Source: Bacteroidota bacterium (GTDB lineage Bacteria > Bacteroidota > Ignavibacteria > UBA10030 > UBA6906). From it: a stretch of 64,000 nucleotides of DNA. The translations under genes were made by a program, and so were the position numbers. Positions 40,781 to 62,530 of this stretch are shown in pieces. The notes under the pieces are model-generated. The model did no database searches. It was not told where the DNA came from and saw only the letters and a list, made by a program, of their open reading frames with translations. The first letter of the stretch is position 1. Every line of letters begins with the position of its first letter. The stretch lies in NCBI GenBank assembly GCA_035516035.1, contig DATJAS010000044.1, positions 9,026 through 73,025 of the forward strand. The letters are read 5' to 3'.

Positions 40781-40994
40781 GTCCCAGATCGGACATCTGA
40801 GAGAGAACCCTTTGCACTCCTCACGCTAGCAGTGTCAAATGAAAGAGGCGAAAGTGAGACACAGGGCCCCCACGTCACAGGATACAAGGACCATGACAAG
40901 GTGGTAACCCTATTGAACGTACAGGATTCCTCGTAACAGCTGTCGAAGGTAGGGTAAGTCCATAAGCTATTGAACGTGCTGCGGCATAAAATAA

Positions 40995-41027
40995 GAAGAG
41001 TCATCGGATACTGCCCGATGACTCTTC
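40995..41027 (-). terminator. rho-independent terminator for the PFOR/DHOD-like operon
   Basis: Perfect 13-bp stem gaagagtcatcgg/ccgatgactcttc with a 7-nt loop. On the minus strand it is followed by cttattttat, ~58 nt after the DHOD-like gene stop. Confidence 0.65.
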
Positions 41028-41085
41028 TCGTAATATCGGGAAGGCAAGTGGAGACTAATCCGCCTGTTCCCCTTCATCATCAAGA

Positions 41086-49036: not shown

Positions 49037-50335
49037 ATGGCTGCCCAGGACGCACCAGGCGCTGGTGGACTTTCCCCGCAGGAGGAAAACCGCCGTCTCA
49101 AGAGGGCCGTCGAGGAGCTGTCGATCCTGAACGACCTCGCCCGCGCCATCGGGGCATCGGTGAACCTGCAGGATATCATGCGGACGATCATCCACCGGTC
49201 GATCCGCGCCATCCGGGCGGAACAGGGGGTGATCACGCTGGTCGACCACCGCGCGCAGGACGTGATGAAGACGCTCGTGCGCACGATGGCCAGCTCCTCC
49301 CAGTCGCCGCAGTACCACTTCAGCCAGAGCCTCCTCGGCTGGATGCACCTGAACAAGAAGCCGCTGATGCTCAACGACCCCCGCACGGACGAGCGGTTCC
49401 GCGGCGTCCAGTGGGACGAGTCGATCCGCTCGCTCCTGTGCGTGCCGATGATGGTCAAATCGACGCTCATCGGCGTCCTGACGGTGTACAACAAGCGTGA
49501 GGAGGGCGCGTTCACGGACGAGGACCAGCGACTCCTGGCGATCATCGCCGGCCAGTCTGCGCAGATCGTCGAGAACGCGCGCCTCTACGAGGAAGAGCAG
49601 GCGCTTCAGCGGATGAAGGAGGAGGTCCGGCTCGCCGCGACCATACAGATGGATCTCCTCCCGAAGGCCCCTCCCGACGTCCCCGGGTACGATATCGCGG
49701 GGGTGAGCATCCCTGCCCAGCTCGTCGGCGGCGATGCGTTCGATTTCATTCCGATCGACGCCACGCACATCGCCGTCACGCTTGCGGACGTGTCGGGGAA
49801 AGGACTTCCAGCGTCGCTCCTGATGGCCAACGTCCAGGCGACGCTCCGCGGGCAGACTCTCGGCGGGCCCGGTGCTTCAGTCTGCGTGCAGCGCGCGAAC
49901 AAGCTCCTCTTCCAGAGCACGAGCCCCGACAAGTTTGTTACGCTCTTCTACAGCGTGCTTGACGCCGGGGCCCACACGCTGACCTACTGTAATGCGGGGC
50001 ACGACCACCCGTTCCACTTTTCCGGCCCCGGGTCGCCGAAGAGGCTGGAGACAGGGGGCCTCGTGGTCAGCATCGTGGAGGATTTTCCCTACCAGGAGGA
50101 CACCGTGTCGCTCGCCCCGGGCGACGTGGTCGTTGTCTACTCCGACGGGATCACGGAGGCGGTGGATCCCCTGGCCGCGCAGTTCGGGGACGTGAACATC
50201 GAGTCCGTCGTCGTCGCCAGCCGCACGCTCGGCGCCGCCGGCATCATCGACGCCATCGTGGGTGCGGTGCGGCACCACGCCGACACCGCCGCGCAGGCGG
50301 ACGACATGACCATCGTGGTTATCAAGCGGCTGTAA
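49037..50335 (+). CDS. GAF-domain PP2C (RsbU/SpoIIE-like) phosphatase
   Basis: N-terminal GAF domain and C-terminal PP2C with GGDAFDF and VYSDGITEA. Confidence 0.8.
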   Translation: MAAQDAPGAGGLSPQEENRRLKRAVEELSILNDLARAIGASVNLQDIMRTIIHRSIRAIRAEQGVITLVDHRAQDVMKTLVRTMASSSQSPQYHFSQSLLGWMHLNKKPLMLNDPRTDERFRGVQWDESIRSLLCVPMMVKSTLIGVLTVYNKREEGAFTDEDQRLLAIIAGQSAQIVENARLYEEEQALQRMKEEVRLAATIQMDLLPKAPPDVPGYDIAGVSIPAQLVGGDAFDFIPIDATHIAVTLADVSGKGLPASLLMANVQATLRGQTLGGPGASVCVQRANKLLFQSTSPDKFVTLFYSVLDAGAHTLTYCNAGHDHPFHFSGPGSPKRLETGGLVVSIVEDFPYQEDTVSLAPGDVVVVYSDGITEAVDPLAAQFGDVNIESVVVASRTLGAAGIIDAIVGAVRHHADTAAQADDMTIVVIKRL

Positions 50336-50375
50336 CGGAGGGAGGACCGGCAATCGGGATGACACTCACGGGTCG

Positions 50376-50789
50376 GTGCCGTTGATGCGCCGGGAGTTTG
50401 CCAGGGAGATGGCGTCGCTGGATGCGGTGTTCGACTTTCTGCACCGCTTCGCAGGAGAGGAACGTCTCGACCCGCAGGCGTCCTACGCGCTGGATTTGGC
50501 CGTGGAGGAGTTCTTCACGAACATCGTGAAGTACGGCAAGGGAAACGGGGGGAGCATCGTCGTCGAAGCCGTTCGCTCGGGGGGCACGGTGACCGTCCGC
50601 CTGGAAGAGGAGACTCCCGTTCCGTTCGACGTCACGCGGCAGACCGCGACCCAGTTCGACACCCCGTTTGCCGAGCGACGGCCCGGCGGCCTGGGCATCC
50701 ACATTGCCCGGGAGATGCTCGACGGCCTGGCGTACGACTACGTCGACGGCACGAGCCGGATCACACTGACCAAACACCTGGAGCCGTAG
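50376..50789 (+). CDS. anti-sigma regulatory factor, RsbW/SpoIIAB-like Ser/Thr kinase (HATPase_c)
   Basis: LAVEEFFTNIVKYG N-box and GGLGIHIAREMLD G-box. Length is 137 aa. Confidence 0.75.
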   Translation: MPLMRREFAREMASLDAVFDFLHRFAGEERLDPQASYALDLAVEEFFTNIVKYGKGNGGSIVVEAVRSGGTVTVRLEEETPVPFDVTRQTATQFDTPFAERRPGGLGIHIAREMLDGLAYDYVDGTSRITLTKHLEP

Positions 50790-50790
50790 C

Positions 50791-51075
50791 ATGTTCAGCA
50801 TTGCAGTCAACGACGAGGGGATCGTCGTCCTGACAGGGAGGTTCGACGCGTCGCAGTCGGACAGGGCGCGGGAGGTGTTCGCGGTACTGAAGGAATCGGC
50901 AGTCGTGGATTTCCGGGATCTGGACTACATTTCAAGCGCGGGATTGGGTGTGCTCCTCGCCACACAGCAGCGGCTGAAAAAGGAGGGGAAGGCGATCAAG
51001 CTCGTGCACATGAACCGGATGGTGCGGGATGTCTTCAAAATCGCTCGTTTTGACTTGATTTTTGAAATAGAATAG
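50791..51075 (+). CDS. STAS-domain anti-sigma-factor antagonist (RsbV/SpoIIAA-like)
   Basis: 94 aa, with LDYISSAGLGVLL containing the phosphorylatable Ser context. Confidence 0.75.
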   Translation: MFSIAVNDEGIVVLTGRFDASQSDRAREVFAVLKESAVVDFRDLDYISSAGLGVLLATQQRLKKEGKAIKLVHMNRMVRDVFKIARFDLIFEIE

Positions 51076-51090
51076 AGCCAACATTTGTGA

Positions 51091-51669
51091 TTGCGGACGG
51101 TATTTATGACAGAGCCGAGTGACGAAGATCTCGTCCGGCAGTGCCGGGCGGGGGAACTGAAGGCGTTTGACATGCTCGTGGCAAGGCACCAGAGGACGGT
51201 ATACAATCTGGCCCTCCGGATGGTGCGAAGCGGAGACGACGCCGCGGATATCGCTCAGACGGTGTTCGTTAAGGCGTATGAGAACCTCGAGCGATTCGAT
51301 CCCCAGTACAAGTTCTTCAGCTGGCTCTACCGCATCGCCGTGAACGAATCGCTGAACGCGGTGGAGCAGAAGAAGCGGTTCGAGGGGCTGGACGGCGTGG
51401 ATGTCGCGGTCGAAGCCGCCGAGGAGAAGGACGATGAGACACTCAGGCAGGAGGAGAGGATACAGTCGGGATTGATGCTCCTCAGCGTCGACCAGCGGGC
51501 GGTGATCGTGCTCAAACACATGCAGGGGCTTTCATACAGGGAAATCGCACAGGTGCTCGATCTCCCTGAAAAGACGGTGAAGTCGCGCCTCTTCAGCGCG
51601 CGGCAGGCGTTCAAGGATATACTGAAGCGGAAAGGACGGCGACGGAATGACCGCAGAAGAGCTTCGTGA
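51091..51669 (+). CDS. RNA polymerase sigma factor, ECF subfamily
   Basis: Region 2 (DIAQTVFVKAYENLERFD, FFSWLYRIAVN) and region 4 (LKHMQGLSYREIAQVLDLPEKTVKSRL). Confidence 0.85.
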   Translation: MRTVFMTEPSDEDLVRQCRAGELKAFDMLVARHQRTVYNLALRMVRSGDDAADIAQTVFVKAYENLERFDPQYKFFSWLYRIAVNESLNAVEQKKRFEGLDGVDVAVEAAEEKDDETLRQEERIQSGLMLLSVDQRAVIVLKHMQGLSYREIAQVLDLPEKTVKSRLFSARQAFKDILKRKGRRRNDRRRAS

Positions 51670-52426
51670 ACTGATCAACCGGGAGATCGACGGCGATCTC
51701 TCCCCGTCGGAAAAGCGCAGGCTCGCGCAGGCGACGCGCCGCAACCCACAGGCGCGCCGGCTCCAGGCGGAGCTGAAGCAAGTCCACACCGCGCTTGCCT
51801 CCGTCCGCGCCGTCGAACCCCCTTCGCACCTCGCCGGGAGGATCAGCGCTGAGGTGCGCGCCCGCGCTGCCGCTTCGGCGTCAGCGTCCGCCCATGCCCG
51901 GGAAGCCGTTGAGCGCCGCGCGTCCTGGCTGGGATCCCTCGGCGGCGTGGTGTTCGGGAAGTCGATGGTCCGCTACGGCACAGTGTTCGCCGGCGGGCTG
52001 GTGGTGGGAGCTCTTGCATTCATGCTTCTTGCGCACCCCGAACCCGCCCCGTCAGTCCCGGGCAACTCTGCCATGGGGACGCTCCTTGCCCAGTCGGAGT
52101 CGTTCCCGGTCAACGTGCCGGGGGCGCAGGGAACTGTGACGGCCGTCCCCACGGAGACGGGGAAGGAACTGACGCTCCGTTTGATCTGCTCATCCGCCAC
52201 GACGACGCGGCTTGTATACGACCCGTCGAGGGTGAAGCTCGAGAACCTGAGCGAGCTCCAGTCCGCAGGGGGCCCGGTCGCCGTCAACAACGGTGTCGTG
52301 GAAATCTCCGGGACAGGGGCGCAGAAATGCACGCTCCTCTTCTCGGGCGTCAAGGATTCGAAGCTCTCCGTCCAGATTGCATCCACCGCTGGAGGTTCAT
52401 TCCATGCGGAGGTCCAGGTTCACTGA
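51647..52426 (+). CDS. putative anti-sigma factor (single-pass membrane, Cys-less N-terminal domain)
   Basis: Overlaps the sigma gene by 23 nt. Cytoplasmic N-domain ELINREIDGDLSPSEKRRL, one TM (VFAGGLVVGALAFMLLA), then a periplasmic C-domain. Confidence 0.55.
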   Translation: MTAEELRELINREIDGDLSPSEKRRLAQATRRNPQARRLQAELKQVHTALASVRAVEPPSHLAGRISAEVRARAAASASASAHAREAVERRASWLGSLGGVVFGKSMVRYGTVFAGGLVVGALAFMLLAHPEPAPSVPGNSAMGTLLAQSESFPVNVPGAQGTVTAVPTETGKELTLRLICSSATTTRLVYDPSRVKLENLSELQSAGGPVAVNNGVVEISGTGAQKCTLLFSGVKDSKLSVQIASTAGGSFHAEVQVH

Positions 52427-52468
52427 AGTGAGGTCCAGGTTCCCCGAATTGTGGTCCAGGTTCACTGA
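52411..52468 (+). repeat. three direct repeats of ggtccaggttc(a/c)c(t/c)ga with 21-nt phasing
   Basis: Copies at 52411-52426, 52432-52447 and 52453-52468. The first contains the anti-sigma stop codon. They lie 50-110 nt upstream of the nonapeptide-repeat gene. Confidence 0.6.
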
Positions 52469-52517
52469 GGTCCCGTAGTTTTCGGCACGTCACCCACCAT
52501 CCCCCCAGGAGGTTGCG

Positions 52518-53654
52518 ATGGAAACCGCTCCGGTAACACAACCCAGGAAGAGCCGCCGCCCGCTCTGGATTGGTCTCGGCGTCGTTGCAGCATGTTTCGT
52601 GGTGTACATCCTCGTCCACGGGTGGCCCCCTGTGGACAACGCCGGCGGAACGATCGGGGCAGCGAAGAAATACCGTTCAGGTCAGATGACCGAGAACGAC
52701 GTCCGGCTGCAGAACCCCGAGATCCAGAAGATTCTGCAGAACGACAAGATCCAGGCAATTATCAACAACGACGGCTTCAAGTCCGCGCTCGCCAGTCCGG
52801 CGTTCACGGCGGCAATGACGAGCCCGGCGTTCACGGCGGCGCTTGCGACCCCCCGGCTCGCGTCCGCTCTTGCACAGCCGGGTCTCGCTGCCGCCCTCGC
52901 AACGCCCGGGATGGCTGCAGCGATGTCTTCGCCTGCGTTCACAGCCGCGATGGCCGTGCCGCAGCTGACGTCTGCGATGGCCTACCCGGCGTTCACCGCC
53001 GCGATGGCCTCGCCGGCGTTCACGGCGGCGCTTGCGCAACCGGCCTTTACCGCCGCGCTGGCGCAGGGGAACATGACCGCCGCGCTGAAGGCGGCGGGTA
53101 TGACTTCACCGGCCATGACGGCCGCGATGACGTCCGCCAGTTTAGCGCCTGCGGCAATGACCGCACAGCTTACGGCGGCGCTCCAGTCGCCCGCCCTCGC
53201 TGCGGCCCTGAAGTCACCGGGACTCGCAGCGGCGCTGAAGTCTCCTGAGCTGTCGGCCGCGATGCAGAGTCCGGCGCTCCAGTCGGCGCTCACGGCCCCC
53301 GCGATGGAGGCTGCTCTCGCGAGCCCGGCGCTCCAGTCCGCGCTCAGCGCTCCGGCGCTCCAGGCGTCGCTTCAGAGCCCGGCGCTTCAGTCAGCCCTAA
53401 AGTCTCCGGAGCTCCAGTCTGCGCTGAAGTCGCCTGAGCTCACTGCGGCACTCCAGACTCCCGCGCTTCAGGCGGCGCTGCAGTCGCCCGGGCTCACCGC
53501 GGCTCTCCAGAGCCCCGCGCTCCAGGCCGCGCTCCAGACTCCCGCACTGCAGGCTGCTCTCACGAGCCCCGAGCTGAAGGCTGCCCTTGCCAGCCCGGCG
53601 TTCACGTCAGCCCTCACCAGCGGGGCGTTCGGAGCCGCCGCCCAGCAGCAGTAA
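52518..53654 (+). CDS. membrane-anchored protein with ~38 tandem nonapeptide repeats (x-[ST]-P-[AEG]-[LF]-[QTK]-[AS]-A-[LM])
   Basis: N-terminal TM LWIGLGVVAACFVVYILV. The rest is almost entirely SPAFTAALA / SPALQSALK repeats, with a 27-nt degenerate DNA periodicity. Confidence 0.55.
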   Translation: METAPVTQPRKSRRPLWIGLGVVAACFVVYILVHGWPPVDNAGGTIGAAKKYRSGQMTENDVRLQNPEIQKILQNDKIQAIINNDGFKSALASPAFTAAMTSPAFTAALATPRLASALAQPGLAAALATPGMAAAMSSPAFTAAMAVPQLTSAMAYPAFTAAMASPAFTAALAQPAFTAALAQGNMTAALKAAGMTSPAMTAAMTSASLAPAAMTAQLTAALQSPALAAALKSPGLAAALKSPELSAAMQSPALQSALTAPAMEAALASPALQSALSAPALQASLQSPALQSALKSPELQSALKSPELTAALQTPALQAALQSPGLTAALQSPALQAALQTPALQAALTSPELKAALASPAFTSALTSGAFGAAAQQQ

Positions 53655-53708
53655 ACCAGCAAGAGACCCACTTTCCGGCCGGGCGGATGAGTACCTCCGC
53701 CCGGTCCT

Positions 53709-53837
53709 GTCATTGCGAGCGGCGCCGCAGGCGCCGCGAAGCAATCCACCCCCCCCGTCATTGCGAGCGTTTTCCGCGAAGCGCGTTCTTTGCGTCACGC
53801 CGCCTGTGGCGCCGCAGGCGCCAATTTTTGGCGTGAC
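53709..53837. repeat. two copies of the 'gtcattgcgag...gaagcaatcc' intergenic repeat plus a GC palindrome
   Basis: Units begin at 53709 and 53757. They are followed by an inverted repeat gtcacgcc...ggcgtgac around a ggcgcc-gca-ggcgcc palindrome. Confidence 0.7.
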
Positions 53838-53892
53838 AATCTCTCCCAAAATGTCATATATTCCCACTTGACTCTCACCCACCACCTGTAAA

Positions 53893-56823
53893 TTGCGCAA
53901 GTTCCTCATAGCCTGTGCGATCGCCGGGCTCGCGCCGTCGTTTTCCCGGGCGCAGCTCTTTGACCGGGAAACCGCGCATTTGCGCCTCGTCTACTACTCG
54001 AAGGCCCACGAGTATCTCGTCCCCCACATCGTGAGCTGCTTCGAGAACGCCTATCGGTTTGAGCATAAGCTTTTCGACTACACCCCGTCGGAACGGGTCA
54101 GCGTCCTGATGCAGGATTTCGGGGACTACGCCTCGGGTGCCGCAAACACCGTCCCGTTCAACGTCATGAACATCGGCATCGCCCCGTTCAGCTACGTCTA
54201 TGAGACGATGCCCGCCGAAGAGCGGTTCAACCTGATGATGATGCACGAGATGGTCCACATCGTCACAATGGACAAGGCATCGTCACAGGACGCGTTCTTC
54301 CGGTCGTTGTTCTGCGGGAAGGTCGCGCCGATCCCGGAGCAACCCCTCTCGATGATCTACGGCTACCTCACGGGCCCCCGCTGGTATGCGCCGCGCTGGT
54401 ACGTCGAGTCCATTGCCGTCTTCATGGAGACGTGGATGGCGGGGGGGCTCGGGCGCGCGCTGGGGGCCTACGACGAGATGGTCTTCCGGACGATGGTGCG
54501 CGACTCGAGCTACATGTACGACATGGTGGGCCTGGAGGCGGAGGGGACGAAGGTGGATTTCCAGGTCGGCGCGGCGTCGTACCTCTACGGGACGCGATTT
54601 GTGAGCTACCTGGCACTGCGCTACGGTCCTGACGCGCTGCTCCGGTGGTTCATCCAGACGCGGGGAAGCGACGCAGGGTTCGCTGCGCAATTCGAGGATG
54701 TCTACCACACATCGCTGGACGACGAGTGGGGGGCCTGGATCGCGTGGGAGCATCGATGGCAGCAGGCCAACCTCGACTCGGTCCGCCGATACCCCGTGAC
54801 CGTCTGCCGGCCCGTGACGCCCGGCGCGGTCGGGTCCGTCTCCCGCTCATTTTATGACCCCATCGCACGGAGAGTCTATGTCGCGGTGAACTACCCCGGC
54901 CAGACGCCGCACATCGCGTCGCTCGACACACGCACGGGTGCCGTGGAGAACCTTCGCGAGGTGAGGGGGGGAGCCCTCTTCTACGTGACGTCCCTGGCGT
55001 TCGATCCGGCGGGCCGCACGCTGTTTTATACGGCGGACAACAATCACTGGCGCGATCTCTACGCGTACGACATCCCCTCGGGCTCGACGCGCCTCCTGAT
55101 CAAGGACGTGCGCACTGGCGATTTCGCGTTCAACAGGAAGGACCGCTCGCTCTGGGGCGTCCGCCATTTCAACGGGATATCGACGCTCGTGCGCATCCCC
55201 GCTCCCTACACGGAGTGGAACCAGGTCTTCTCGTTCGACTACGGGAAGGACATCTTCGACATCGACATCTCCCCCGACGGCGAGTCGCTTGTCGGCGCGC
55301 TCACGCACGTGGACGGGCGTCAGTTCCTGGTCAGGATGAAGACCGCCGCGCTGCTCTCGGGTAACCCGGCGTGCGACACGCTCTACGATTTCGTCAACAG
55401 CACGCCCGCCAATTTCGTCTTCTCGGAAGATGGCGCACGCCTCTATGGCAGCTCGTTCTACAGCGGCGTCTCGAATGTGGTCCGGTACGATATCGCCGCG
55501 AAAAGAATGGACTGGGTGACAAACACCGAGACGGGCCTCTTCCGGCCCCTCCCGATGGCCGGGGACTCCCTCCTGGCGTTTCATTTCACCGGGAGGGGCT
55601 TTCAGCCGGTGATGATCGCCGACAGGACCGTCACGGACGTGAGCCCGATCAGCTACCTCGGCCAGGCAGTCGTCGACAGCTTCCCCGTGCTCAGGACATG
55701 GGCGCTCCCCCCGCCGTCGGTGGTCAATCCCGATTCGGTGACGATCGCTTCCGGAGAATACCGCCCCGCAGATCACATCCGGCCCGCGTCGCTCTACCCG
55801 GTGGTTGAAGGATACAAGGTCTATCCGGCGTACGGCTTACGGTTTAACCTCTCCGACCCCCTCTCCCTTCACCGCATCGATGCGACCGCTTCGTATACGC
55901 CGAACCGGACTGTGCCGGGCGGCGAGCGGCTCCACGCGGCGTTTCACTACGACTTCTGGGAGTGGGGAGTGAACGGGAGCTACAACGGGGGGGACTTCTA
56001 CGACCTCTTCGGTCCGACGCGCCTGAGCCGGAAAGGGTCCTCCCTCGGAACGACGTACAGGGACTACTGGACGTTCGAAGACCCTGAGAAGCTTGAATTC
56101 TCTGCCGCGCTGCAGGGATACTGGGGGCTGCAGAACCTGCCCGAATACCAGAACGTGCTCGCCCCGTTTGCCACGCTCTATTCGCTCAACGCCTCTGTGA
56201 ACTACTCGCTGATGACGCGATCGCTCGGAGCGGTTGAGGAGGAGAGCGGGTACGCCTGGGAGATCGCCTCGATGAACGGGTACGTGAACGGCACGGCGTA
56301 CCCCCGCGTCTACGGGACGCTCGCCCTGGGCACGCTCCTCCCCCTGGATCATTCATCCGTCTGGCTCCGTGCCGCCACCGGCTGGTCGCCGGGCAAGAGG
56401 GAGGACCCGTTCGCGAATTTCTATTTCGGCGCATTCGGGAATAACTGGGTCGACCACGGAGATTTCCGGCGCTACCGCGAGTACTATGCCTTCCCGGGCG
56501 CCTCGCTCAACTCGATCGGCGGGACGAATTTCGGCAAGGCTCTGGTGGAATGGGTGATCTCTCCCGTGAGGTTCAGGCGGTTCGGCGGCGAGTCCTTCTA
56601 CTGCACATGGGTGCAGCTCGTGCTCTTCGGGGGAGGGGTTACGACCAACATGGACGCGCCGTCGCTTGGACAGACGGTGGTCGACGCCGGTGCGCAGGCC
56701 GACTTCCGCCTTGTGCTCTTCTCCGCGCTCGAGTCGACGTTCTCCCTGGGCTGGGCGGCGGCCGCCGAGAAGGATGAGCGGCTGACGCGTGAGTTCATGG
56801 CCTCCCTGAAGATCCTGCGCTGA
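53893..56823 (+). CDS. large secreted protein with N-terminal HExxH (putative zinc peptidase, MA-clan-like) region and TolB-like beta-propeller
   Basis: Signal peptide MRKFLIACAIAGLAPSFSRAQ. HEMVH at about residue 115. The middle region has propeller-like repeats (DxSPDG..., FSEDGARLYG). Length is 976 aa. Confidence 0.45.
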   Translation: MRKFLIACAIAGLAPSFSRAQLFDRETAHLRLVYYSKAHEYLVPHIVSCFENAYRFEHKLFDYTPSERVSVLMQDFGDYASGAANTVPFNVMNIGIAPFSYVYETMPAEERFNLMMMHEMVHIVTMDKASSQDAFFRSLFCGKVAPIPEQPLSMIYGYLTGPRWYAPRWYVESIAVFMETWMAGGLGRALGAYDEMVFRTMVRDSSYMYDMVGLEAEGTKVDFQVGAASYLYGTRFVSYLALRYGPDALLRWFIQTRGSDAGFAAQFEDVYHTSLDDEWGAWIAWEHRWQQANLDSVRRYPVTVCRPVTPGAVGSVSRSFYDPIARRVYVAVNYPGQTPHIASLDTRTGAVENLREVRGGALFYVTSLAFDPAGRTLFYTADNNHWRDLYAYDIPSGSTRLLIKDVRTGDFAFNRKDRSLWGVRHFNGISTLVRIPAPYTEWNQVFSFDYGKDIFDIDISPDGESLVGALTHVDGRQFLVRMKTAALLSGNPACDTLYDFVNSTPANFVFSEDGARLYGSSFYSGVSNVVRYDIAAKRMDWVTNTETGLFRPLPMAGDSLLAFHFTGRGFQPVMIADRTVTDVSPISYLGQAVVDSFPVLRTWALPPPSVVNPDSVTIASGEYRPADHIRPASLYPVVEGYKVYPAYGLRFNLSDPLSLHRIDATASYTPNRTVPGGERLHAAFHYDFWEWGVNGSYNGGDFYDLFGPTRLSRKGSSLGTTYRDYWTFEDPEKLEFSAALQGYWGLQNLPEYQNVLAPFATLYSLNASVNYSLMTRSLGAVEEESGYAWEIASMNGYVNGTAYPRVYGTLALGTLLPLDHSSVWLRAATGWSPGKREDPFANFYFGAFGNNWVDHGDFRRYREYYAFPGASLNSIGGTNFGKALVEWVISPVRFRRFGGESFYCTWVQLVLFGGGVTTNMDAPSLGQTVVDAGAQADFRLVLFSALESTFSLGWAAAAEKDERLTREFMASLKILR

Positions 56824-56842
56824 GGGAAGGGAGCCCCGCATC

Positions 56843-57832
56843 ATGGAGTTTCTCCTCGGCCTCGTTCCCGTCTGCGTGTTCCTGGGAGCCCTCTTCCTCT
56901 TCGACAGCTACAAGCTCGCGCCGCCCCGGGCGGTCTTTGTCGCGATGGCCGCCGGCGGCGTTGCCGCGGGCATCGCCTATCCCCTCAACGCGCTCCTGAT
57001 GAGCTCCACCGGCATCGGGATCGCTTCGTTCACACGCTACGTTGCGCCGTTCGTCGAGGAATCTCTTAAGGCTGCGTTCCTTGTCTACATACTCGCCACG
57101 CGCCGGACCGGGTTCCTCGTTGATACAGCCATCGAAGGGTTTGCAATCGGCGCCGGGTTTTCCCTCGTGGAGAACATCTCCTATGTCGCCTCGCTCGGTT
57201 CGCACAGCGCGCTCCTCTGGCTTGTGAGGGGCTTCGGCACTGCGATGATGCACGGCGCCGCCACGAGCATTGCCGGGATCGTGGGGAAGGTCATGTCCGA
57301 CCGCGCCGGCGGGGCGGGTGTGGCCACGCTCCTCCCGGGGGTGTTCCTTGCGATCGTCATTCACTCGGCATTCAATCACTTCTTTATCCCGGCGGTGGCG
57401 ACGACGATGCTGATCGTGCTGCTGCTGCCGATCCTGATGTCAATTGTCTTCGCCCGGAGCGAGGACGCCACGCGCCGGTGGCTCGGCGTCGGCTTCGATA
57501 CCGACCGGGACCTGCTGGAAATGATCTCCAGCGGGGGCGTCGCCGGGACGCGTATCGGGCAATACCTCCACGCGCTCCAGACGCGCTTCCCTGGCGAGAT
57601 ACTTGCCGATATGCTCTGCGTGCTCCGCCTGCGGCTGGAGCTTTCCGTGCAGGCCAAGGGTCTGCTCCTGATGCGCGAAGCGGGCTTCGAAATCCCTCCG
57701 GATACTGAGGTCAAGGCGAAGTTCGACGAATTGCACTACCTGCGCAAGTCCATTGGTCCCACCGGCATGCTTGTCCTGCAGCCGTTTCTCCACACCTCGG
57801 AAGAGCAACTCGCGCGGATTTTACGCGTATAA
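56843..57832 (+). CDS. prsW: PrsW-family intramembrane glutamic protease
   Basis: Conserved PrsW motifs EESLKAAF (EExxK), FSLVENISY (FxxxE) and HGAATSIAG (HxxxxA) in a polytopic membrane protein. Confidence 0.65.
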   Translation: MEFLLGLVPVCVFLGALFLFDSYKLAPPRAVFVAMAAGGVAAGIAYPLNALLMSSTGIGIASFTRYVAPFVEESLKAAFLVYILATRRTGFLVDTAIEGFAIGAGFSLVENISYVASLGSHSALLWLVRGFGTAMMHGAATSIAGIVGKVMSDRAGGAGVATLLPGVFLAIVIHSAFNHFFIPAVATTMLIVLLLPILMSIVFARSEDATRRWLGVGFDTDRDLLEMISSGGVAGTRIGQYLHALQTRFPGEILADMLCVLRLRLELSVQAKGLLLMREAGFEIPPDTEVKAKFDELHYLRKSIGPTGMLVLQPFLHTSEEQLARILRV

Positions 57833-57904
57833 TCCGTTGACATTCGGCGGCAACTTTCGTACATGTGATGGGAATACTGTTCTCTCACACACCTCCCCCG
57901 CGCC

Positions 57905-58666
57905 ATGTTCATGCGCACCGTACATCTGCGGCTCGATCCCAACCGCATCCTGGAAATGCGCCAGATGTACACCGGTGTAATTATCGGCGAGCTTGCGCGG
58001 ACGCGTGGCTGCCTCTACGCCGGTCTCCTGCAGAGCGTTGACGATCCCGAAGTTGGCATTTCGCTCACGCTCTGGAGCGGACCCGCCGATGCCGATGCCT
58101 ACGAACGGAGCGGCGCGTATGCGCGCCTCTGGGATCAGTCCCGTCCGTATCTTGCCGCAACGCCCGATTGGACAGTGCATCTCACGGATGACCTGCAGCT
58201 CCAGTACTCCCCGGTCGATGAGGCGCCCCTCGTCTCCCGTTATGAATCCCCCGGACCCGCAGACACGTCAGGGTTTTCCGCGGAAGGGAAGGGACGGTTC
58301 TACCTTCGCCTCCTCTCGCTCCACGTGAGGAGCGGCATGCTCGAAGAGTTCAGCGAGCTGTACAGGAATGAGATCATTCCCGGCCTCCGCAAGATCGCCG
58401 GGTGCCGCTCCGCGTTCCTCTCCGGTGAGAAGGGGGATCCCCGGCGACTGATTTCCGTGACGATCTGGAACTCGAGGGCCGAGGCGGAGGAGTACGAACG
58501 CAATGGCGCATTCAGTGCGCTGAGCGAACGGGTCGCGTTCACGCTCGAGAATTCCGACCGTTGGAAAGCCGGAACGCAAAAGGTCGACCGCGCCGTCGCA
58601 AGCGACGACATGGCTGCAACGGGATACACGCTCATTGTCGGCCGGGCGCTCGCCCCGCAGGGATGA
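57905..58666 (+). CDS. tandem ABM (antibiotic biosynthesis monooxygenase / Dabb-like) domain protein
   Basis: Two internal repeats: ISLTLWSGPADADAYERSGAYARLW and VTIWNSRAEAEEYERNGAFSAL. Confidence 0.55.
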   Translation: MFMRTVHLRLDPNRILEMRQMYTGVIIGELARTRGCLYAGLLQSVDDPEVGISLTLWSGPADADAYERSGAYARLWDQSRPYLAATPDWTVHLTDDLQLQYSPVDEAPLVSRYESPGPADTSGFSAEGKGRFYLRLLSLHVRSGMLEEFSELYRNEIIPGLRKIAGCRSAFLSGEKGDPRRLISVTIWNSRAEAEEYERNGAFSALSERVAFTLENSDRWKAGTQKVDRAVASDDMAATGYTLIVGRALAPQG

Positions 58667-58692
58667 CTGCTCTTGTATTCCAAGGAGGTTGC

Positions 58693-60045
58693 ATGAAGAA
58701 GATCCTGGTGCTCCTTATCATTTCGTCGTCGCTCGCTCTGGCCGGCGGGACGAGAATCACCGTCCCCTACACACGGTTCACGCTCCCCGACGGTCTCGAC
58801 GTTATACTGCATGAGGACCACAGCGTTCCCACGATCAGCGTCAATCTCTGGTACCACGTCGGCTCGGCGCGCGAGAAGCCGGGACGTACCGGGTTCGCGC
58901 ACCTCTTCGAGCATATCATGTTCATGGGCTCGAAGGATGCGCCCGAAGGGAAGTTCGACGAGTGGCTGGAGGCGGCCGGCGGCGACAACAATGCAACCAC
59001 GTCGACGGACAGGACGGACTACTACGAGAACGTCCCGAGCAACGCGCTCGATCTTCCGCTCTTCCTGGAGTCGGACAGAATGGGACATCTCCTGGAGACG
59101 ATGACGCCCGCGAAGGTAGACGCCCAGCGGGCCGTGGTAAAGAACGAGAGGCGGCAGAGCTACGAGAACAGGCCCTACGGCATGGCGTCGATGCTGCTTG
59201 TCGACAGCCTCTATCCTCCCGATCATCCGTATCACTGGCTGCCGATCGGCTCGATGGCGGATCTCTCCGCTGCCACGTTTGCCGATGTGCAGCAGTTCTT
59301 CAAGACGTATTATTTGCCGAACAACGCCAGCCTGGTGATCGCAGGAGATATCGACCCGGCGAAAACGAAGGCCCGCGTGGAATACTGGTTCAGCGACGTG
59401 AAGGCCGGTCCCCGTGTTCCCCCCCAGCCGGTACCCGTGGCATCCCTGTCGTCGGAACGGCGGATCGTCTATGAAGACAAGGTCCAGCTTCCCCGACTAT
59501 ACATGGCCTGGTTGACGCCTCGGTGGTTTGACCCCGGGGATGCGGAGCTGGACCTTCTGGCGAGCGTCCTTGCGGGAGGAAAGAACTCACGTCTCTACAA
59601 GCGGCTCGTGTATGACATGCAGATCGCGCAGGACGTCACTGCGTATGAAGCCTCGCTCCCCCTTGGCTCGACGTTCAGGATCGTGGTGACCGCTCGAAGC
59701 GGCCACACGCTCACGGAGATCGAACGCGTGGTCCAGGAGGAGATCGACAGGGTCAAGCGTGAGCCCCCGACGCAGCACGAGCTCGAGCGTGCGGTGAACC
59801 AGTACGAGGCGTCGTTTCTCGATCGGCTTGAAAGCATCCCCGGGAAGGCTGACCAGCTCAACGAGTACGTGACATCCACCGGGAATCCCGACTACTTCAA
59901 CGAGGACCTTGCGCGCTATAAGGCGATCGATGCCCGGGGGCTGCAGGCCATGGCGCAGACATGGCTCCCGGACGATGGAAGGGTCATCCTGAGCATCGTG
60001 CCGACCGGTCGGAAGGACCTTGCCGCACAAAAGGAGGGCCGGTGA
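58693..60045 (+). CDS. M16-family zinc peptidase (insulinase/pitrilysin-like), catalytic subunit
   Basis: AAGGAGG RBS. Signal peptide MKKILVLLIISSSLALAG. Inverted zinc motif HLFEHIMFMGS (HxxEH) with a downstream E. Confidence 0.8.
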   Translation: MKKILVLLIISSSLALAGGTRITVPYTRFTLPDGLDVILHEDHSVPTISVNLWYHVGSAREKPGRTGFAHLFEHIMFMGSKDAPEGKFDEWLEAAGGDNNATTSTDRTDYYENVPSNALDLPLFLESDRMGHLLETMTPAKVDAQRAVVKNERRQSYENRPYGMASMLLVDSLYPPDHPYHWLPIGSMADLSAATFADVQQFFKTYYLPNNASLVIAGDIDPAKTKARVEYWFSDVKAGPRVPPQPVPVASLSSERRIVYEDKVQLPRLYMAWLTPRWFDPGDAELDLLASVLAGGKNSRLYKRLVYDMQIAQDVTAYEASLPLGSTFRIVVTARSGHTLTEIERVVQEEIDRVKREPPTQHELERAVNQYEASFLDRLESIPGKADQLNEYVTSTGNPDYFNEDLARYKAIDARGLQAMAQTWLPDDGRVILSIVPTGRKDLAAQKEGR

Positions 60046-61496
60046 TGAAACGCATTCTCTGTGCGGTTGCACTCGTCGCGACGATCCTCCCGTTCTCACT
60101 TAATGCACAGCCTGACAGAAGCGGCCCACCGCCCCTCGGACCGCCGCCGTCACTCAGGCTTCCGCCGATTCAGCACCTCTCCCTCGCGAACGGCATCCGC
60201 GTGCTCCTGATGGAAAAGCACGAGGTTCCACTGGTCCAGGTGAATATGGTCATCCGCGGCGGGGCCATTATGGATCCTCCCGGAAAGACCGGGCTCGCAA
60301 GCATGACCGCGGCAATGCTGACCGAAGGGGCGGGCAGGAGAAACTCGCTCCAGTTCGCGGACGCGGTGGACTTCCTGGGGGCGGATATCTCGGCCTCTTC
60401 CGGGACCAGCTTCATGTGGATCGCGCTCCACACGCCGCTGGAGAGACTGGACTCCGCTCTCGCGCTCTTTGCCGATGTTATCCGGCGGCCTCTCTTCCCG
60501 CCCGAAGAGCTTGAGAGGAATCGAAAGGAGAGGCTCACGTCCCTGATCGAAGCTCGCGAACAACCGCAGACGCTTGCCTCCGTGCTCTTCAACCGGACGT
60601 TGTACGGCGACCACCCCTATGGCCGCATGAATGGCGGAAACGCCACGTCGCTCGCCTCAATGACCGCGGACGACCTGAGGAAATTCCACGACGGCGTCAT
60701 CGTCCCCGCCAGCGCCACGATTATCGTCGTGGGAGACGTGACCCCTGCGGAAATGATGCCGAAACTCGAGGGCGCTTTTGGAGACTGGAAGGGGGAGGCG
60801 GCCGCGCCCCCTTCCTTGCCCCCCATCAACCAGCTTCCTGAGAAGACGCTTCTCTTCGTCGACAAGCCGGGGGCTGCGCAGTCGGTCATCGACATCGGCC
60901 GCGTGGGCGTGCCCCGCCTCACGGACGACTATTATGCGATCGTCGTGATGAATACGATTCTTGGCGGTTCATTCACATCGCGGCTGAACATGAATCTCCG
61001 GGAGAAACACGGCTATACATACGGGGCGGGATCCCAGTTTGATTTCCTGCCGATGGCCGGGCCGTTTGTCGCGAGAGCGTCTGTCCAGACCGCGGTCACC
61101 GACAGCGCGCTCGTGGAATTCATGAAGGAACTCAAGGGGATCCGGGATCCCATCCCCGCATCCGACGTTGAGCGGGCGAGGAACTATGTCGCTCTCGGGT
61201 TTCCTGCAAGTTTTCAGTCGGTCGCCGAGGTTGCCGCGCAGCTCGGGGAGCTGGTGATCTACAATCTTCCCGACGACTACTTCAACAGGTACATCGACAG
61301 GATCCTCGCCGTGACAAAGGCCGACGTCGAGCGAGTCGCCCGCAAGTATATCGACGCGAACGACATGGCGATCATCATCGTGGGAGACAGGAAGGAAGTG
61401 GGGGAGAGCGTGAGAAAGCTGAACCTGGCGCCCGCGAAATTCCTCACTGTGGAAGACGTCCTGGGTCCCGCTCCAGTGGTGGAGGGAGGGAAATGA
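60045..61496 (+). CDS. M16-family peptidase, non-catalytic partner subunit
   Basis: Signal peptide MKRILCAVALVATILPF. M16 fold but no HxxEH motif. Start ATG overlaps the upstream TGA (gTGATGa). Confidence 0.7.
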   Translation: MKRILCAVALVATILPFSLNAQPDRSGPPPLGPPPSLRLPPIQHLSLANGIRVLLMEKHEVPLVQVNMVIRGGAIMDPPGKTGLASMTAAMLTEGAGRRNSLQFADAVDFLGADISASSGTSFMWIALHTPLERLDSALALFADVIRRPLFPPEELERNRKERLTSLIEAREQPQTLASVLFNRTLYGDHPYGRMNGGNATSLASMTADDLRKFHDGVIVPASATIIVVGDVTPAEMMPKLEGAFGDWKGEAAAPPSLPPINQLPEKTLLFVDKPGAAQSVIDIGRVGVPRLTDDYYAIVVMNTILGGSFTSRLNMNLREKHGYTYGAGSQFDFLPMAGPFVARASVQTAVTDSALVEFMKELKGIRDPIPASDVERARNYVALGFPASFQSVAEVAAQLGELVIYNLPDDYFNRYIDRILAVTKADVERVARKYIDANDMAIIIVGDRKEVGESVRKLNLAPAKFLTVEDVLGPAPVVEGGK

Positions 61497-61499
61497 GGA

Positions 61500-62204
61500 A
61501 TGGCGGCTGACAGTCTCGCCAGGCTCCGGCGGGACGTCGTCGCCTGCCGCAAGTGCCCCCGGCTTGTTCGCTGGAGAGAGGATATCGCGCGCCGGAAAGT
61601 CCGGCGATTTGCCGGCGAGACCTACTGGGGGAAACCGAATCCCGGGTTTGGCGATCCTGAGGCGAAGCTCCTTCTCGTCGGACTAGCGCCGGCGGCACAC
61701 GGCGGGAACCGCACGGGTCGAATGTTCACGGGAGACGAAAGCGGCAACTGGCTATTCCGTGCCCTCTATGAAGCCGGGTTCGCGAGCCAGGCGGAATCTA
61801 CATCACGCAACGACGGGCTCACGCTGAAGGGGTGCTACATCACGGCGACATGCCGCTGCGCCCCGCCCCAGAACAAGCTTCTCCCCGCCGAGATCAGGAA
61901 CTGCAGGCCGTTTCTCCACCGCGAAATCCTGCTGTTGAAGAACGTCCGTGTGGTCGTCGGGCTCGGCCGGATCGGGTTTGACACCGCACTGACTTCATTC
62001 AGCGAGCTCGGCCTGATCGAATACAAAAAGAGGCCCGCCTTCGGCCACGGCGCGCGCTATCGGATCGGCCCCTACACGTTCATCGCCTCGTTCCATCCCA
62101 GCCAGCAGAACACGTTCACCGGCAGGCTCACACGCTCGATGCTGAACCGCGTATTTCGATCCGCCCGGGAGTCGCTGGAACATTTTCGGACCCCGGGAGT
62201 ATAA
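61500..62204 (+). CDS. uracil-DNA glycosylase, family 4/5 (4Fe-4S UDG)
   Basis: CRKCPRL Cys cluster start, GEAPG-equivalent GLAPAAHGG, and FTGDESG motif. Confidence 0.75.
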   Translation: MAADSLARLRRDVVACRKCPRLVRWREDIARRKVRRFAGETYWGKPNPGFGDPEAKLLLVGLAPAAHGGNRTGRMFTGDESGNWLFRALYEAGFASQAESTSRNDGLTLKGCYITATCRCAPPQNKLLPAEIRNCRPFLHREILLLKNVRVVVGLGRIGFDTALTSFSELGLIEYKKRPAFGHGARYRIGPYTFIASFHPSQQNTFTGRLTRSMLNRVFRSARESLEHFRTPGV

Positions 62205-62530
62205 TGGGCATGATACTCCTCTTCGTGTTCCTCCTGATCGCCGGTCCTTATAACCAGCCCGCGCAGGAGAAAATCGTCATCCAGGATGTGATCGTGCCAG
62301 ACTCAGCCAGGGCGGACATTTCGCCTAAGGTCGACACACAGCGCATCGCGAGGAACTGGCGGAAACTCAGGAAAGGAATGTCTTACCGCGAGGTGAAGTC
62401 GCTTATGGGGTCTCCAAACGGCATTGCCTGCTCTGTGTATGACTTTAGCACCACGTTGCACTATGGGGGTTACTACATCGTCTTTGACAATATCAAGAAT
62501 TCGGTGAGATGGTGGTCGCCGAAGGAATAA
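62204..62530 (+). CDS. small exported protein, BamE/SmpA_OmlA-like
   Basis: N-terminal hydrophobic segment. KLRKGMSYREVKSLMGSPNG resembles the SmpA_OmlA GMTxxQVxxLLGxP motif. Confidence 0.35.
   Translation: MGMILLFVFLLIAGPYNQPAQEKIVIQDVIVPDSARADISPKVDTQRIARNWRKLRKGMSYREVKSLMGSPNGIACSVYDFSTTLHYGGYYIVFDNIKNSVRWWSPKE

Follow-up and report, generated by a model that had tools for sequence, protein, structure and literature searches.

A run of co-directional protease genes lies downstream of an ECF sigma/anti-sigma gene pair in a Bacteroidota bacterium (GCA_035516035.1, contig DATJAS010000044.1), which raises the question of whether these genes form a system with the sigma factor or are simply its neighbors. 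We addressed this question in a 64,000-nucleotide stretch of the contig (the window; positions below are those of this stretch) by combining domain searches, structure models, and comparison of the gene neighborhood among genomes. A preliminary description had grouped the block 53893-61496 with the sigma/anti-sigma genes into a possible undescribed envelope-stress or cell-surface signaling system (49037-61496). In that description, a PrsW-type protease was suggested to act as the site-1 protease on the anti-sigma, and an HExxH-propeller protein and an M16 pair were suggested to process an envelope substrate such as the adjacent repeat protein. The genes it reported are real, and all of them were found at the positions given. 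Its interpretation was only partly supported, because the conserved unit is not the protease block but a module running from an RsbW-like gene to the PrsW gene (about 50376-57832).

Genes of the locus

All five open reading frames of the block are on the + strand, in the same direction as the sigma and anti-sigma genes, and the PrsW gene starts 4.4 kb after the anti-sigma stop. The features and the searches that identified them are listed in the table. One start was corrected, as the sigma open reading frame called from TTG 51091 would begin inside the conserved promoter.

Features of the locus, all on the + strand, with supporting evidence; locus counts refer to loci of the 976-aa protein family, and labels beginning with L denote individual loci
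Coordinates	Feature	Evidence
49037..50335	GAF + PP2C (SpoIIE-type) phosphatase, RsbU-like; variable accessory of the module	Pfam SpoIIE 1e-41, GAF_2 1.5e-18; homologue within +/-10 kb in 13 of 24 fully flanked loci, at varying positions and strands
50376..50789	RsbW-like anti-sigma kinase (HATPase_c_2)	Pfam HATPase_c_2 5.4e-16; upstream on the same strand in 31 of 46 loci
50791..51075	STAS anti-anti-sigma (RsbV-like)	Pfam STAS_2 6.4e-12; NCBIfam ant_ant_sig 53.7 bits (cut-off 53.45); upstream in 37 of 46 loci
51075..51106	ECF-type promoter, window variant GAGCCAACATTT-N12-CGGTATTTA; family consensus ACCAACTTTT-N12-tTGTATTTA, with AAC-N16-TGTA spacing	17.3 bits; only site of 12 bits or more on either strand of the window
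51106..51669	RpoE/SigW-like ECF sigma factor; start placed at the conserved ATG, true start may be slightly further downstream	Pfam Sigma70_r2 and Sigma70_r4_2; closest solved structures E. coli sigma-E 1or7 (3.6e-27) and SigW 5wuq (8.6e-23); upstream of the 976-aa gene in 43 of 51 loci
51647..52426	Single-pass anti-sigma factor: N-terminal anti-sigma domain without the zinc motif, TM helix near residue 110, juxtamembrane G-T-L motif, periplasmic domain of about 125 aa with no known family	NCBIfam anti-sigmaE PRK13920 2.8e-9, N-terminus only; zf-HC2 sub-threshold (0.041)
52518..53654	Membrane-anchored repeat protein: N-terminal TM helix, conserved juxtamembrane motif (WPP...GTIGAAKKYRSGQM..DVRLQNPEIQ), about 30 nonapeptide repeats (SPAFTAAMx / SPALQSALx)	Tandem Repeats Finder: period 27/54 arrays across 52920-53584; N-terminal region conserved upstream of the 976-aa gene in 39 of 51 loci; repeated weak STI1/ubiquilin-type hits
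53655..53892	Structured intergenic region: two copies of a dispersed repeat (GTCATTGCGAGCG), terminator-like hairpin (53801-53823), sigma-70-like promoter match (53833-53862)	RNA fold z-score -5.2; 4 copies of the repeat in the window against 0.09 expected; consensus scans
53893..56823	976-aa predicted outer-membrane protein: signal peptide, gluzincin-like HExxH...E domain, TolB-like six-bladed propeller, Omp85-type barrel	Structure model and Foldseek; weak Peptidase_MA_2 (7/15) and Omp85_2 (7/13) hits among homologues
56843..57832	PrsW-family intramembrane protease with a subfamily-specific cytoplasmic C-terminal domain of about 130 aa	Pfam PrsW-protease 2.4e-18, 66.8 bits (cut-off 23.5)
57905..58666	Tandem ABM-domain protein; lineage-specific neighbor	Pfam ABM, two stretches; downstream of the module in 1 of 51 loci
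58693..60045	M16 peptidase with HLFEH (the active subunit); lineage-specific neighbor	Pfam Peptidase_M16 and M16_C; after the module in 3 of 51 loci, and also in L019 and L081/L082
60045..61496	M16 partner without the zinc motif; lineage-specific neighbor	Pfam Peptidase_M16 and M16_C; no HxxEH in the sequence; TGATG stop/start overlap at 60043-60047

The 976-aa protein has more domains than the HExxH and propeller parts first described. Its N-terminus resembles a signal peptide, HEMVH lies at residues 118-122, and searches of Pfam, NCBIfam, and PDB sequences gave no match. The AlphaFold model (mean pLDDT 75.7) shows a helical HExxH domain (about 22-300), a six-bladed TolB-like propeller (about 310-580; Foldseek to TolB, E 1e-9), and a C-terminal beta-barrel (about 630-976) that had gone unnoticed. 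The barrel matched only Omp85-family barrels (BamA, TamA, CdiB, Sam50, and Toc75, with E down to 4e-6). Both of our structure models are of only moderate confidence (mean pLDDT 75.7 and 70.6). More than 5540 homologues were found, all of about 980 aa and none with a functional name. The HExxH motif is followed exactly 50 residues later by W[YF]xE[GS] in 65 of 67 orthologues, so that the HExxH-N49-E arrangement is intact.

The PrsW-type protein has intact motif residues as well, with E72, E73, K76, E110, N111, H137, H174, and N178 invariant in 71 of 71 orthologues. It is, however, far below the NCBIfam PrsW equivalog cut-off (20 against 225 bits), and Bacillus PrsW lacks its cytoplasmic domain of about 130 residues. 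This domain had no Pfam or PDB match and was seen almost only in proteins of about 335 aa or fragments of them.

Conservation of the module

Conservation of the block as a unit had been named beforehand as a test of the proposed system, and we evaluated it among loci carrying the 976-aa family. The family was found in at least 597 species-level genomes from about ten phyla. The 80 loci that were kept span Ignavibacteriota, Bacteroidota/Balneolales, KSB1, Calditrichota, Zixibacteria, Acidobacteriota, Gemmatimonadota, Fibrobacterota, and others, at 47-58% identity. A PrsW-type gene follows within 1 kb in 66 of 71 loci, with a median gap of 14 nt between the 976-aa gene's stop and the PrsW start and overlap in 14 of 70 pairs. 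The sigma, STAS, RsbW-like, and repeat-protein genes lie upstream at the frequencies given in the table. All three PrsW-subfamily homologues that we looked up independently sit in the same context. The linkage of the PrsW and HExxH/propeller genes to the sigma/anti-sigma genes thus held in many phyla, although the RsbW-like, STAS, sigma, anti-sigma, and repeat-protein genes of the conserved unit all lie outside the block first outlined.

The block 53893-61496 was not conserved as a unit. Among the 51 loci with enough downstream DNA, the M16 pair and the ABM gene were rarely found, and all-vs-all clustering of every open reading frame in the loci identified neither of these families, nor any other beyond those of the module, as conserved. 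No site-2 (M50) protease was conserved in the loci either.

Between the sigma gene and the 976-aa gene lie the anti-sigma and the repeat protein, the latter made of 8-9-residue repeats. In about 16 loci (about a third), the anti-sigma N-domain and TM helix are fused directly to the juxtamembrane motif and repeat array to give a single protein. The two proteins share a juxtamembrane G-T-(I/M)-G motif. In an alignment of 26 orthologues of the split-type anti-sigma, the G is invariant and is followed by T/S plus a hydrophobic residue, 15-25 residues after the TM helix, and the repeat proteins carry the same G-T/S-hydrophobic motif.

An ECF-type promoter (ACCAACTT-N16-TGTA) was found before the sigma gene and, in most lineages, before the repeat-protein gene. 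The motif was first found by unbiased enumeration of bipartite k-mers, in 31 of 49 sigma-upstream regions. Scanning 1.24 Mb on both strands gave 65 sites of 20 bits or more, all on the module's strand, with 36 before sigma and about 27 before the repeat or fused gene, and the motif occurs essentially nowhere else. The weight matrix was built largely from the sites it rediscovers, although the motif itself was found without prior assumptions. In the window, no second site precedes the repeat gene, and the structured 239-nt spacer with its terminator-like and sigma-70-like matches separates that gene from the 976-aa gene. Here the proteases may therefore be transcribed independently of the sigma factor. 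No conserved promoter motif was found directly upstream of the 976-aa gene in any lineage.

A proposed regulated-proteolysis mechanism

Our best reading, to which we give a probability of roughly 0.45, is a widely conserved ECF sigma-factor signaling module that spans the cell envelope. In this view, the RpoE-like sigma factor is held at the inner membrane by the single-pass anti-sigma, whose periplasmic partner is the repeat array, either as part of the anti-sigma itself or, as in the window, as a separate protein anchored alongside it. The 976-aa protein would place its propeller and zinc metalloprotease domain in the periplasm, while the PrsW-type protease would sit in the inner membrane with its active site near the periplasmic face. 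On envelope or outer-membrane perturbation, the outer-membrane protease/propeller would bind and trim the repeat array or the anti-sigma ectodomain, PrsW would then cut at or near the shared G-T-(I/M)-G segment, and general proteases encoded elsewhere would remove the stub and release sigma. Sigma would then transcribe its own gene from ACCAACTT-N16-TGTA promoters and, in most lineages, also the repeat-protein, outer-membrane-protease, and PrsW genes. The RsbW/STAS/PP2C partner-switching genes would add a second, cytoplasmic input.

The gene content and order, the fusions, the promoter, the domain architecture, and the intact catalytic motifs are what our analysis shows, whereas the direction of proteolysis (who cleaves whom), the signal, and the topology of the 976-aa protein are inferred. 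There is no direct evidence that either protease acts on the anti-sigma or the repeat protein, and genes in a sigma factor's regulon are often outputs rather than activators. The role of PrsW as site-1 protease on this anti-sigma is likewise inferred, by analogy with Bacillus subtilis RsiW, and the periplasmic orientation of the protease and propeller rests on analogy with the POTRA domains of Omp85 proteins. The reading is favored by the sigma factor being closest to E. coli sigma-E and B. subtilis SigW, both of which are released by regulated proteolysis (PMC5358783). An envelope signaling or stress system remains the most reasonable interpretation, and we found no description of it in the literature that could be searched.

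Alternative readings

The main alternative, possible but less favored, is that the module is an RpoE-like envelope-stress regulon encoded next to its sigma factor, with the proteases as effectors rather than activators. The Omp85-anchored metalloprotease/propeller would degrade or edit misassembled outer-membrane proteins or lipoproteins, like BepA or DegP working beside BAM, the repeat protein would be a periplasmic holdase that binds hydrophobic segments, and PrsW would clear membrane-protein fragments. Sigma activation would then use other proteases or the partner-switching module. The promoter before the repeat-protein gene places these genes downstream of the sigma factor, the E. coli sigma-E regulon likewise contains outer-membrane biogenesis and protease genes, and identity of about 50% across phyla over 976 aa suggests a housekeeping role. 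Heinz and Lithgow suggested periplasmic quality control for their separate Omp85-metalloprotease ('Metallo') subfamily (PMC4104836). The repeat arrays also gave repeated weak matches to STI1/ubiquilin-type motifs, which bind hydrophobic clients (44.7 bits against STI1-HOP_DP in L049), but this similarity could reflect amino-acid composition alone. This alternative does not explain the repeated fusion of the array to the anti-sigma domain, the juxtamembrane motif shared by the two proteins, or the tight coupling to the outer-membrane protein gene of a PrsW-type protease, whose only characterised substrates are anti-sigma factors.

Two further readings are improbable. In the first, the barrel would translocate or display the repeat protein at the cell surface, in the manner of two-partner secretion or PlpD, with the metalloprotease maturing it and PrsW acting as a sheddase that releases the repeat domain from its anchor. 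The barrel does resemble TpsB-type transporters (CdiB 6wim, E 6e-5), the repeat protein has an uncleaved-looking N-terminal anchor followed by a conserved segment, and the genes are adjacent and co-directional. However, the model shows no POTRA domain and no TPS-type secretion domain, BamA and TamA barrels match at least as well as the transporters, and in the fused forms the array stays attached to a cytoplasmic anti-sigma domain, which fits signaling rather than export. In the second, the 976-aa protein would be a BamA-BamB-like fusion acting as a specialised outer-membrane protein insertase, as Heinz and Lithgow suggested for WD40-Omp85 proteins (PMC4104836), with a non-catalytic HExxH domain and only a regulatory link to the sigma factor. 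The barrel matches BamA best and the propeller recalls BamB and TolB, but the conserved HExxH and third-ligand glutamate at fixed spacing argue for catalysis, POTRA domains are absent from the model, and the tight coupling to PrsW is left unexplained.

The least likely reading is that the whole of 49037-61496, including the ABM and M16 genes, is one functional system in which M16 and the HExxH protein process the repeat protein: the window genes are co-directional and closely spaced (gaps of 73, 27, -1, and 3 nt) and the M16 pair recurs after PrsW in L001, L018, L022, and L081/L082 and directly after the 976-aa gene in L019, but as a general system this is already largely refuted by the rarity of both neighbors, active/inactive M16 pairs are common in many unrelated contexts, the ABM gene sits in different positions in L003 and L004, where it is upstream of the module, and the M16 copies that are present are 72-73% identical to the window's (45% in L019), so that their recurrence is synteny within one lineage.

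Gene content and the 976-aa protein

The + strand from 49037 to 62530 is one run of co-directional ORFs, whose family assignments from Pfam and NCBIfam are collected in the table together with the other features of the region. The observation made in the preliminary description held: every gene that it listed downstream of the ECF locus, namely the HExxH-propeller protein, the PrsW-type protease, the tandem ABM protein, and the active/inactive M16 pair, is present. The two adjacent M16 genes, with HxxEH in one only, fit an M16B heterodimeric peptidase pair.

Features of the window, with assignments from profile searches, motif scans, and inspection of the sequence
Coordinates	Strand	Feature	Remark
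32462, 53709, 53757, 63759	+	Dispersed 13-mer GTCATTGCGAGCG	Four exact copies
36000-42000		Region of low G+C	0.53-0.56 against about 0.63 elsewhere
47982-49005		DUF2085 membrane protein and a second, overlapping membrane-protein ORF	Just upstream of the GAF-PP2C gene
49037-50335	+	GAF + SpoIIE/PP2C phosphatase
50376-50789	+	RsbW-like HATPase_c_2
50791-51075	+	STAS
51075		Putative ECF-type promoter	17.3 bits
51091/51106-51669	+	ECF sigma	TTG at 51091, conserved ATG at 51106
51647-52426	+	Single-pass anti-sigma	N-terminal match only; overlaps the sigma gene by 23 nt
52409-52468		21-nt unit GAGGTCCAGGTTCACTGAAGT	Repeated 2.9 times
52518-53654	+	Nonapeptide-repeat protein
53655-53892		Highly structured spacer	Fold z-score -5.2
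53893-56823	+	976-aa protein	No family match
56843-57832	+	PrsW family
57905-58666	+	Two ABM (antibiotic biosynthesis monooxygenase-like) domains	52.4 bits, two stretches
58693-60045	+	M16 with HLFEH	Peptidase_M16 and M16_C
60045-61496	+	M16 without the zinc motif	Peptidase_M16 and M16_C; TGATG overlap
61500-62204	+	Family 4/5 uracil-DNA glycosylase
62663-63754		Patatin-like phospholipase	Pfam 2.3e-21

Searches of the full 976-aa protein against Pfam, NCBIfam, and PDB found nothing, and only domain-wise profiles and structure comparison were informative. A database search returned more than 5540 homologues (sequence clusters), all of about 980 aa and none carrying a functional name or a Pfam domain. 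In an alignment of 18 diverse members, H118, E119, H122, and E172 are invariant. Across 67 full-length orthologues HExxH is always present, and W[YF]xE[GS] follows exactly 50 residues later in 65, as expected for a gluzincin (clan MA(E)) with a downstream glutamate as third zinc ligand. A profile of the N-terminal domain aligned the WxxEGxA segment with the third-ligand motif WLNEGFA of M1 aminopeptidases, although the PDB hit was weak (E 0.085). Neither Peptidase_MA_2 nor M1 gave a curated family hit for the window protein, and Peptidase_MA_2 gave weak hits for 7 of 15 homologues (best 9.8e-5). The M1 exopeptidase motif GxMEN is replaced by GAANT (consensus GGANT), and the H...E spacing is 50 residues instead of the 19 of HExxH-X18-E. 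We therefore read the domain as a gluzincin but not as an M1 aminopeptidase.

The AlphaFold model (mean pLDDT 75.7) has three parts: a helical domain (residues 22-300), a propeller (residues 310-580), and a barrel (residues 630-976). The best Foldseek matches of the predicted six-bladed propeller are TolB structures (1e-9, TM-score 0.5 normalised to the target), although Pfam does not detect a PD40 repeat. The barrel was modelled separately with moderate confidence (pLDDT 70.6), and all listed Foldseek hits are BamA, TamA, CdiB, Sam50, or Toc75 barrels, or substrate barrels in BAM complexes, with E from 4e-6. Neither Bac_surface_Ag nor Omp85_2 matched the window protein in Pfam, and Omp85_2 was only sub-threshold in 7 of 13 homologues (best 4.3e-4). 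The model shows no POTRA domain, a helical peptidase-like domain and a propeller standing in its place, but non-POTRA Omp85 subfamilies are recognised (PMC4104836).

Conserved neighbourhood, membrane proteins, and putative promoter

A scan of one genome per species found at least 597 loci for the 976-aa family. The 80 that we kept come from Ignavibacteriota, Bacteroidota (including Balneolales), KSB1, Calditrichota, Zixibacteria, several classes of Acidobacteriota, Gemmatimonadota, Fibrobacterota, Eisenbacteria, and Marinimicrobia, with 47-58% identity to the window protein and 77% in the closest relative. We searched these loci by tblastn with the window's proteins and counted only loci with enough flanking DNA. 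A PrsW gene lies within 1 kb downstream of the 976-aa gene on the same strand in 66 of 71 loci. Upstream, we found the ECF sigma gene in 43 of 51, the repeat-protein N-terminus in 39 of 51, STAS in 37 of 46, and the RsbW-like gene in 31 of 46, while GAF-PP2C occurs anywhere within 10 kb in 13 of 24. Downstream, M16 is present in 3 of 51 loci and ABM in 1 of 51. We considered the M16 pair and the ABM gene as parts of the system and rejected them on neighbourhood frequency. Chance synteny was likewise considered and rejected, because order, strand, promoter, and fusions recur across phyla.

The gap from the 976-aa gene's stop to the PrsW start has a median of 14 nt, and 14 of 70 pairs overlap. 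An all-vs-all clustering of every ORF in the loci found no other conserved family within +/-10 kb of the module and no M50 (RseP/RasP-type) site-2 protease, although one could be encoded elsewhere in the genome. A large Ser/Thr kinase + TolB_N + TPR protein, about 3 kb upstream of the 976-aa gene, recurs in 15 loci (at 47-2338 in locus L002, and in 14 others) and may be another optional input. In L019, a locus from a Bacteroidota genome, the M16 pair follows the 976-aa gene directly (10001-15849) and no PrsW gene lies within the 3 kb available downstream. It is one of two loci with at least 1.2 kb of downstream DNA and no detectable PrsW, the other being locus L050.

As a reciprocal check, we looked up three PrsW-subfamily homologues independently, and all three sit after a gene of about 980 aa with ECF, STAS, and RsbW genes upstream. 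In two of the loci involved, L081 and L083, this gene is broken into several called genes through either frameshifts or assembly errors. In L081 to L083 a second STAS gene precedes the RsbW-like gene (order STAS-RsbW-STAS-sigma). L081 and L082 both carry the same protein (labelled P0229 here) and also have an M16 pair that is 73% identical to the window's. M16 synteny is therefore confined to one lineage.

The anti-sigma and the repeat protein occur in two arrangements. In most loci, including the window, there are two genes, the first encoding an anti-sigma of about 255 aa with a TM helix near residue 100, and the second a protein with an N-terminal TM helix, a conserved juxtamembrane motif (YPP...GTIGGxxKAxKYRxEQ...DVxL), and 25-45 tandem repeats of 8-9 residues. 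In about 16 loci, including Gracilimonas and other Balneolales, some Ignavibacteriales, and a Gemmatimonadales genome, a single gene encodes the anti-sigma N-domain, the TM helix, the same motif, and the repeats. The repeat unit differs by lineage (SPAFTAAMx here; KDAAFQELL, NSDAFRAAM, ASPDFSRLM, and KDARFAELA elsewhere) but keeps a hydrophobic pattern, and its recurrent weak matches to STI1/HOP DP and ubiquilin motifs are treated only as a lead. Split-type anti-sigmas (n=26) have an invariant glycine followed by T/S and a hydrophobic residue, 15-25 residues after the TM helix, which is the same G-T-(I/M)-G seen in the repeat proteins. The two membrane proteins thus share a juxtamembrane element and are repeatedly fused, which ties the repeat array to the anti-sigma. 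The anti-sigma match in NCBIfam is N-terminal (2.8e-9), and the periplasmic domain has no Pfam relative. In the window, the first copy of the 21-nt unit contains the anti-sigma stop codon and the other two lie in the 92-nt spacer before the repeat-protein gene. In other lineages that spacer holds the second ECF-type promoter. The repeat looks like a duplication of the gene's 3' end.

Unbiased enumeration of bipartite k-mers gave CCAAC...TGTA in 31 of 49 sigma-upstream regions and 16 of 50 repeat-gene-upstream regions, with nothing above background directly upstream of the 976-aa or RsbW genes. The consensus of this putative autoregulatory promoter is ACCAACTTTT-N12-tTGTATTTA, with a 16-nt spacer in 49 of 53 sites. 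A matrix scan of all loci (1.24 Mb, both strands) found 65 sites of 20 bits or more, none on the opposite strand. Of these, 36 (ACCAACTT-N16-TGTA) lie immediately before the sigma gene and about 27 before the repeat or fused gene, and one weak site is unexplained. The window has exactly one site of 12 bits or more, which abuts the conserved ATG of the sigma gene. The mechanical ORF start of that gene (TTG) lies inside the conserved promoter. In most loci the -10-like TGTA sits only 3 nt before the conserved ATG, which is too close for a start at that ATG, while other loci have a start codon 7 nt after TGTA. The transcript is therefore either leaderless with unusual spacing, or translation starts further downstream. 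The sigma factor has Sigma70_r2 and Sigma70_r4_2 domains only, and its closest solved relatives are sigma-E (1or7, 3.6e-27) and SigW (8.6e-23).

The PrsW protein matches the Pfam family (PF13367; MEROPS M82) at 66.8 bits against a cut-off of 23.5 over residues 27-199. The residues of the EExxK, FxxxE(N), H, and HxxxN motifs (E72, E73, K76, E110, N111, H137, H174, and N178) are invariant in 71 of 71 orthologues. It does not reach the NCBIfam equivalog for the Bacillus subtilis orthologue (NF033739; 20.1 bits against 225). The positive-inside pattern of the loops suggests seven TM helices with the N-terminus outside and the C-terminus inside, which would place the motif residues towards the periplasmic leaflet; this topology is our inference from the sequence. 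The extra 130-residue cytoplasmic C-terminal domain (residues 200-329) has no Pfam or PDB relative. In a scan of 1.84 billion representative proteins it occurs in 462 clusters, almost always at positions 200-330 of proteins of about 335 aa or in fragments of them. It has conserved residues of its own (W213, D256, E266, K272, G281, and E296) and could be a docking site for the sigma/anti-sigma or partner-switching proteins.

Interpretation and comparison with known systems

The conserved unit is RsbW-STAS-sigma-anti-sigma-repeat protein-Omp85 protease-PrsW. The interpretation offered in the preliminary description, a signalling system built on the protease-rich block that includes the ABM and M16 genes, was thus supported only in part, since that block is not the conserved unit. 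We favour a trans-envelope regulated-proteolysis module, with a probability of roughly 0.45. The only characterised PrsW substrates are anti-sigma factors (PMC5358783), PrsW is tightly coupled to the predicted outer-membrane protease, the repeat array is often the anti-sigma's own ectodomain, and both membrane proteins carry one shared juxtamembrane motif. Three features of this window call for caution: it has no second promoter site before the repeat gene, the structured 239-nt spacer separates the repeat gene from the 976-aa gene, and that spacer carries a dispersed repeat, a terminator-like hairpin, and a sigma-70-like match. Gene order, fusions, and motif conservation come directly from the sequence comparisons, while site-1 cleavage of the anti-sigma by PrsW and activity of the promoter are inferred, and inhibition of the adjacent sigma factor by the RsbW-like kinase is no more than a possibility. 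The main rival, less likely in our view, is that these genes are outputs of the sigma factor that maintain the envelope.

A bolder version of the favoured reading is possible, though less likely than not. In this view an Omp85-family outer-membrane protein would use its own periplasmic propeller and zinc protease to read the state of the outer membrane and directly cleave a repeat-array anti-sigma ectodomain, and would then hand the stub to a coupled PrsW-type protease. If so, this is a self-contained trans-envelope proteolytic relay and the RpoE-type envelope-stress sensor of Ignavibacteriota, Balneolales, Calditrichota, Acidobacteriota, Gemmatimonadota, and related phyla.

The Bacillus subtilis sigma-W/RsiW/PrsW/RasP pathway likewise has an ECF sigma factor of the RpoE/SigW type, a single-pass anti-sigma, and a PrsW-family protease, which is the first to cut RsiW (PMC5358783). 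Here, however, PrsW is genetically coupled to the sigma module and to a predicted outer-membrane protein and carries the extra cytoplasmic domain, the anti-sigma lacks the zinc motif and has a repeat array as its ectodomain or partner, the host has two membranes, a partner-switching module of the RsbU/RsbW/RsbV type is attached, and no RasP-type gene is linked. The Escherichia coli sigma-E/RseA/DegS/RseP response contains the closest solved sigma factor, has a similar -35 element (AACTT), and follows the logic of linking outer-membrane state to a sigma factor by proteolysis of a single-pass anti-sigma. The candidate proteases here are of different families (a gluzincin on an Omp85 barrel and PrsW, instead of DegS and RseP) and are encoded with the sigma factor, and there is no RseB or RseC. 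FecI/FecR/FecA cell-surface signalling also encodes together an ECF sigma factor, an inner-membrane anti-sigma that spans the periplasm, and a dedicated outer-membrane protein. In our module the outer-membrane component is an Omp85-type barrel with its own protease and propeller rather than a TonB-dependent transducer, there is no FecR domain, and no transport function is evident. In Bordetella, the ECF sigma gene btrS lies beside PP2C, RsbW-like kinase, and STAS genes (BtrU/BtrW/BtrV), as here, but that module controls type III secretion and is not known to have linked membrane proteases or a linked outer-membrane protein. Known RsbW targets are group 3 sigma factors.

The three-part architecture has been catalogued before. 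Heinz and Lithgow (2014, PMC4104836) list a 'WD40-like' Omp85 cluster (accessions such as H1XQ58 and D0MEQ5), and their supplementary table records Phyre assignments to a BamA-type barrel, a TolB-like propeller, and an M1-aminopeptidase-like domain in one protein, with members from Caldithrix, Rhodothermus, Salinibacter, and others. On architecture alone the window protein fits this cluster, and a Caldithrix locus (L030) carries an orthologue. Their paper discusses only the propeller, as a BamA-BamB-like fusion, and gives no function, genomic context, sigma-factor link, or PrsW link.

We found no paper linking PrsW, an Omp85 protein, and an ECF sigma factor in this way, and the ECF classification paper (PMC7826278), its supplements aside, mentions no PrsW, STAS, or RsbW context. 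The parts belong to known superfamilies and the logic resembles the sigma-W and sigma-E pathways. How bacteria outside the Proteobacteria and Firmicutes sense damage to their outer membrane is largely unknown. The module, whose 976-aa family spans at least 597 species-level genomes across about ten phyla, many of them abundant in soil and sediment, gives a concrete, testable candidate for the envelope-stress pathway of these phyla. It joins an RpoE-like sigma factor, a large protein family with no functional name in the sources searched, a distinct PrsW subfamily, and a new kind of repeat ectodomain. It assigns a first functional context to the 'WD40-like' Omp85 proteins, and would extend PrsW-type anti-sigma proteolysis from Gram-positive bacteria to bacteria with two membranes. 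The promoter motif can be used to predict the regulon genome-wide.

Flanking genes and dispersed repeats

The four exact copies of the dispersed 13-mer compare with 0.09 expected and are all on one strand. Two of them lie inside the structured spacer, and the element is probably REP-like and palindromic. The region of low G+C may be foreign or otherwise atypical DNA. The two membrane-protein ORFs upstream of the GAF-PP2C gene are conserved in the same position in the relatives L001 and L018 only. The patatin-like gene is also syntenic in L018, and its match to the CBASS lipase model is far below threshold (23.8 against 200 bits).
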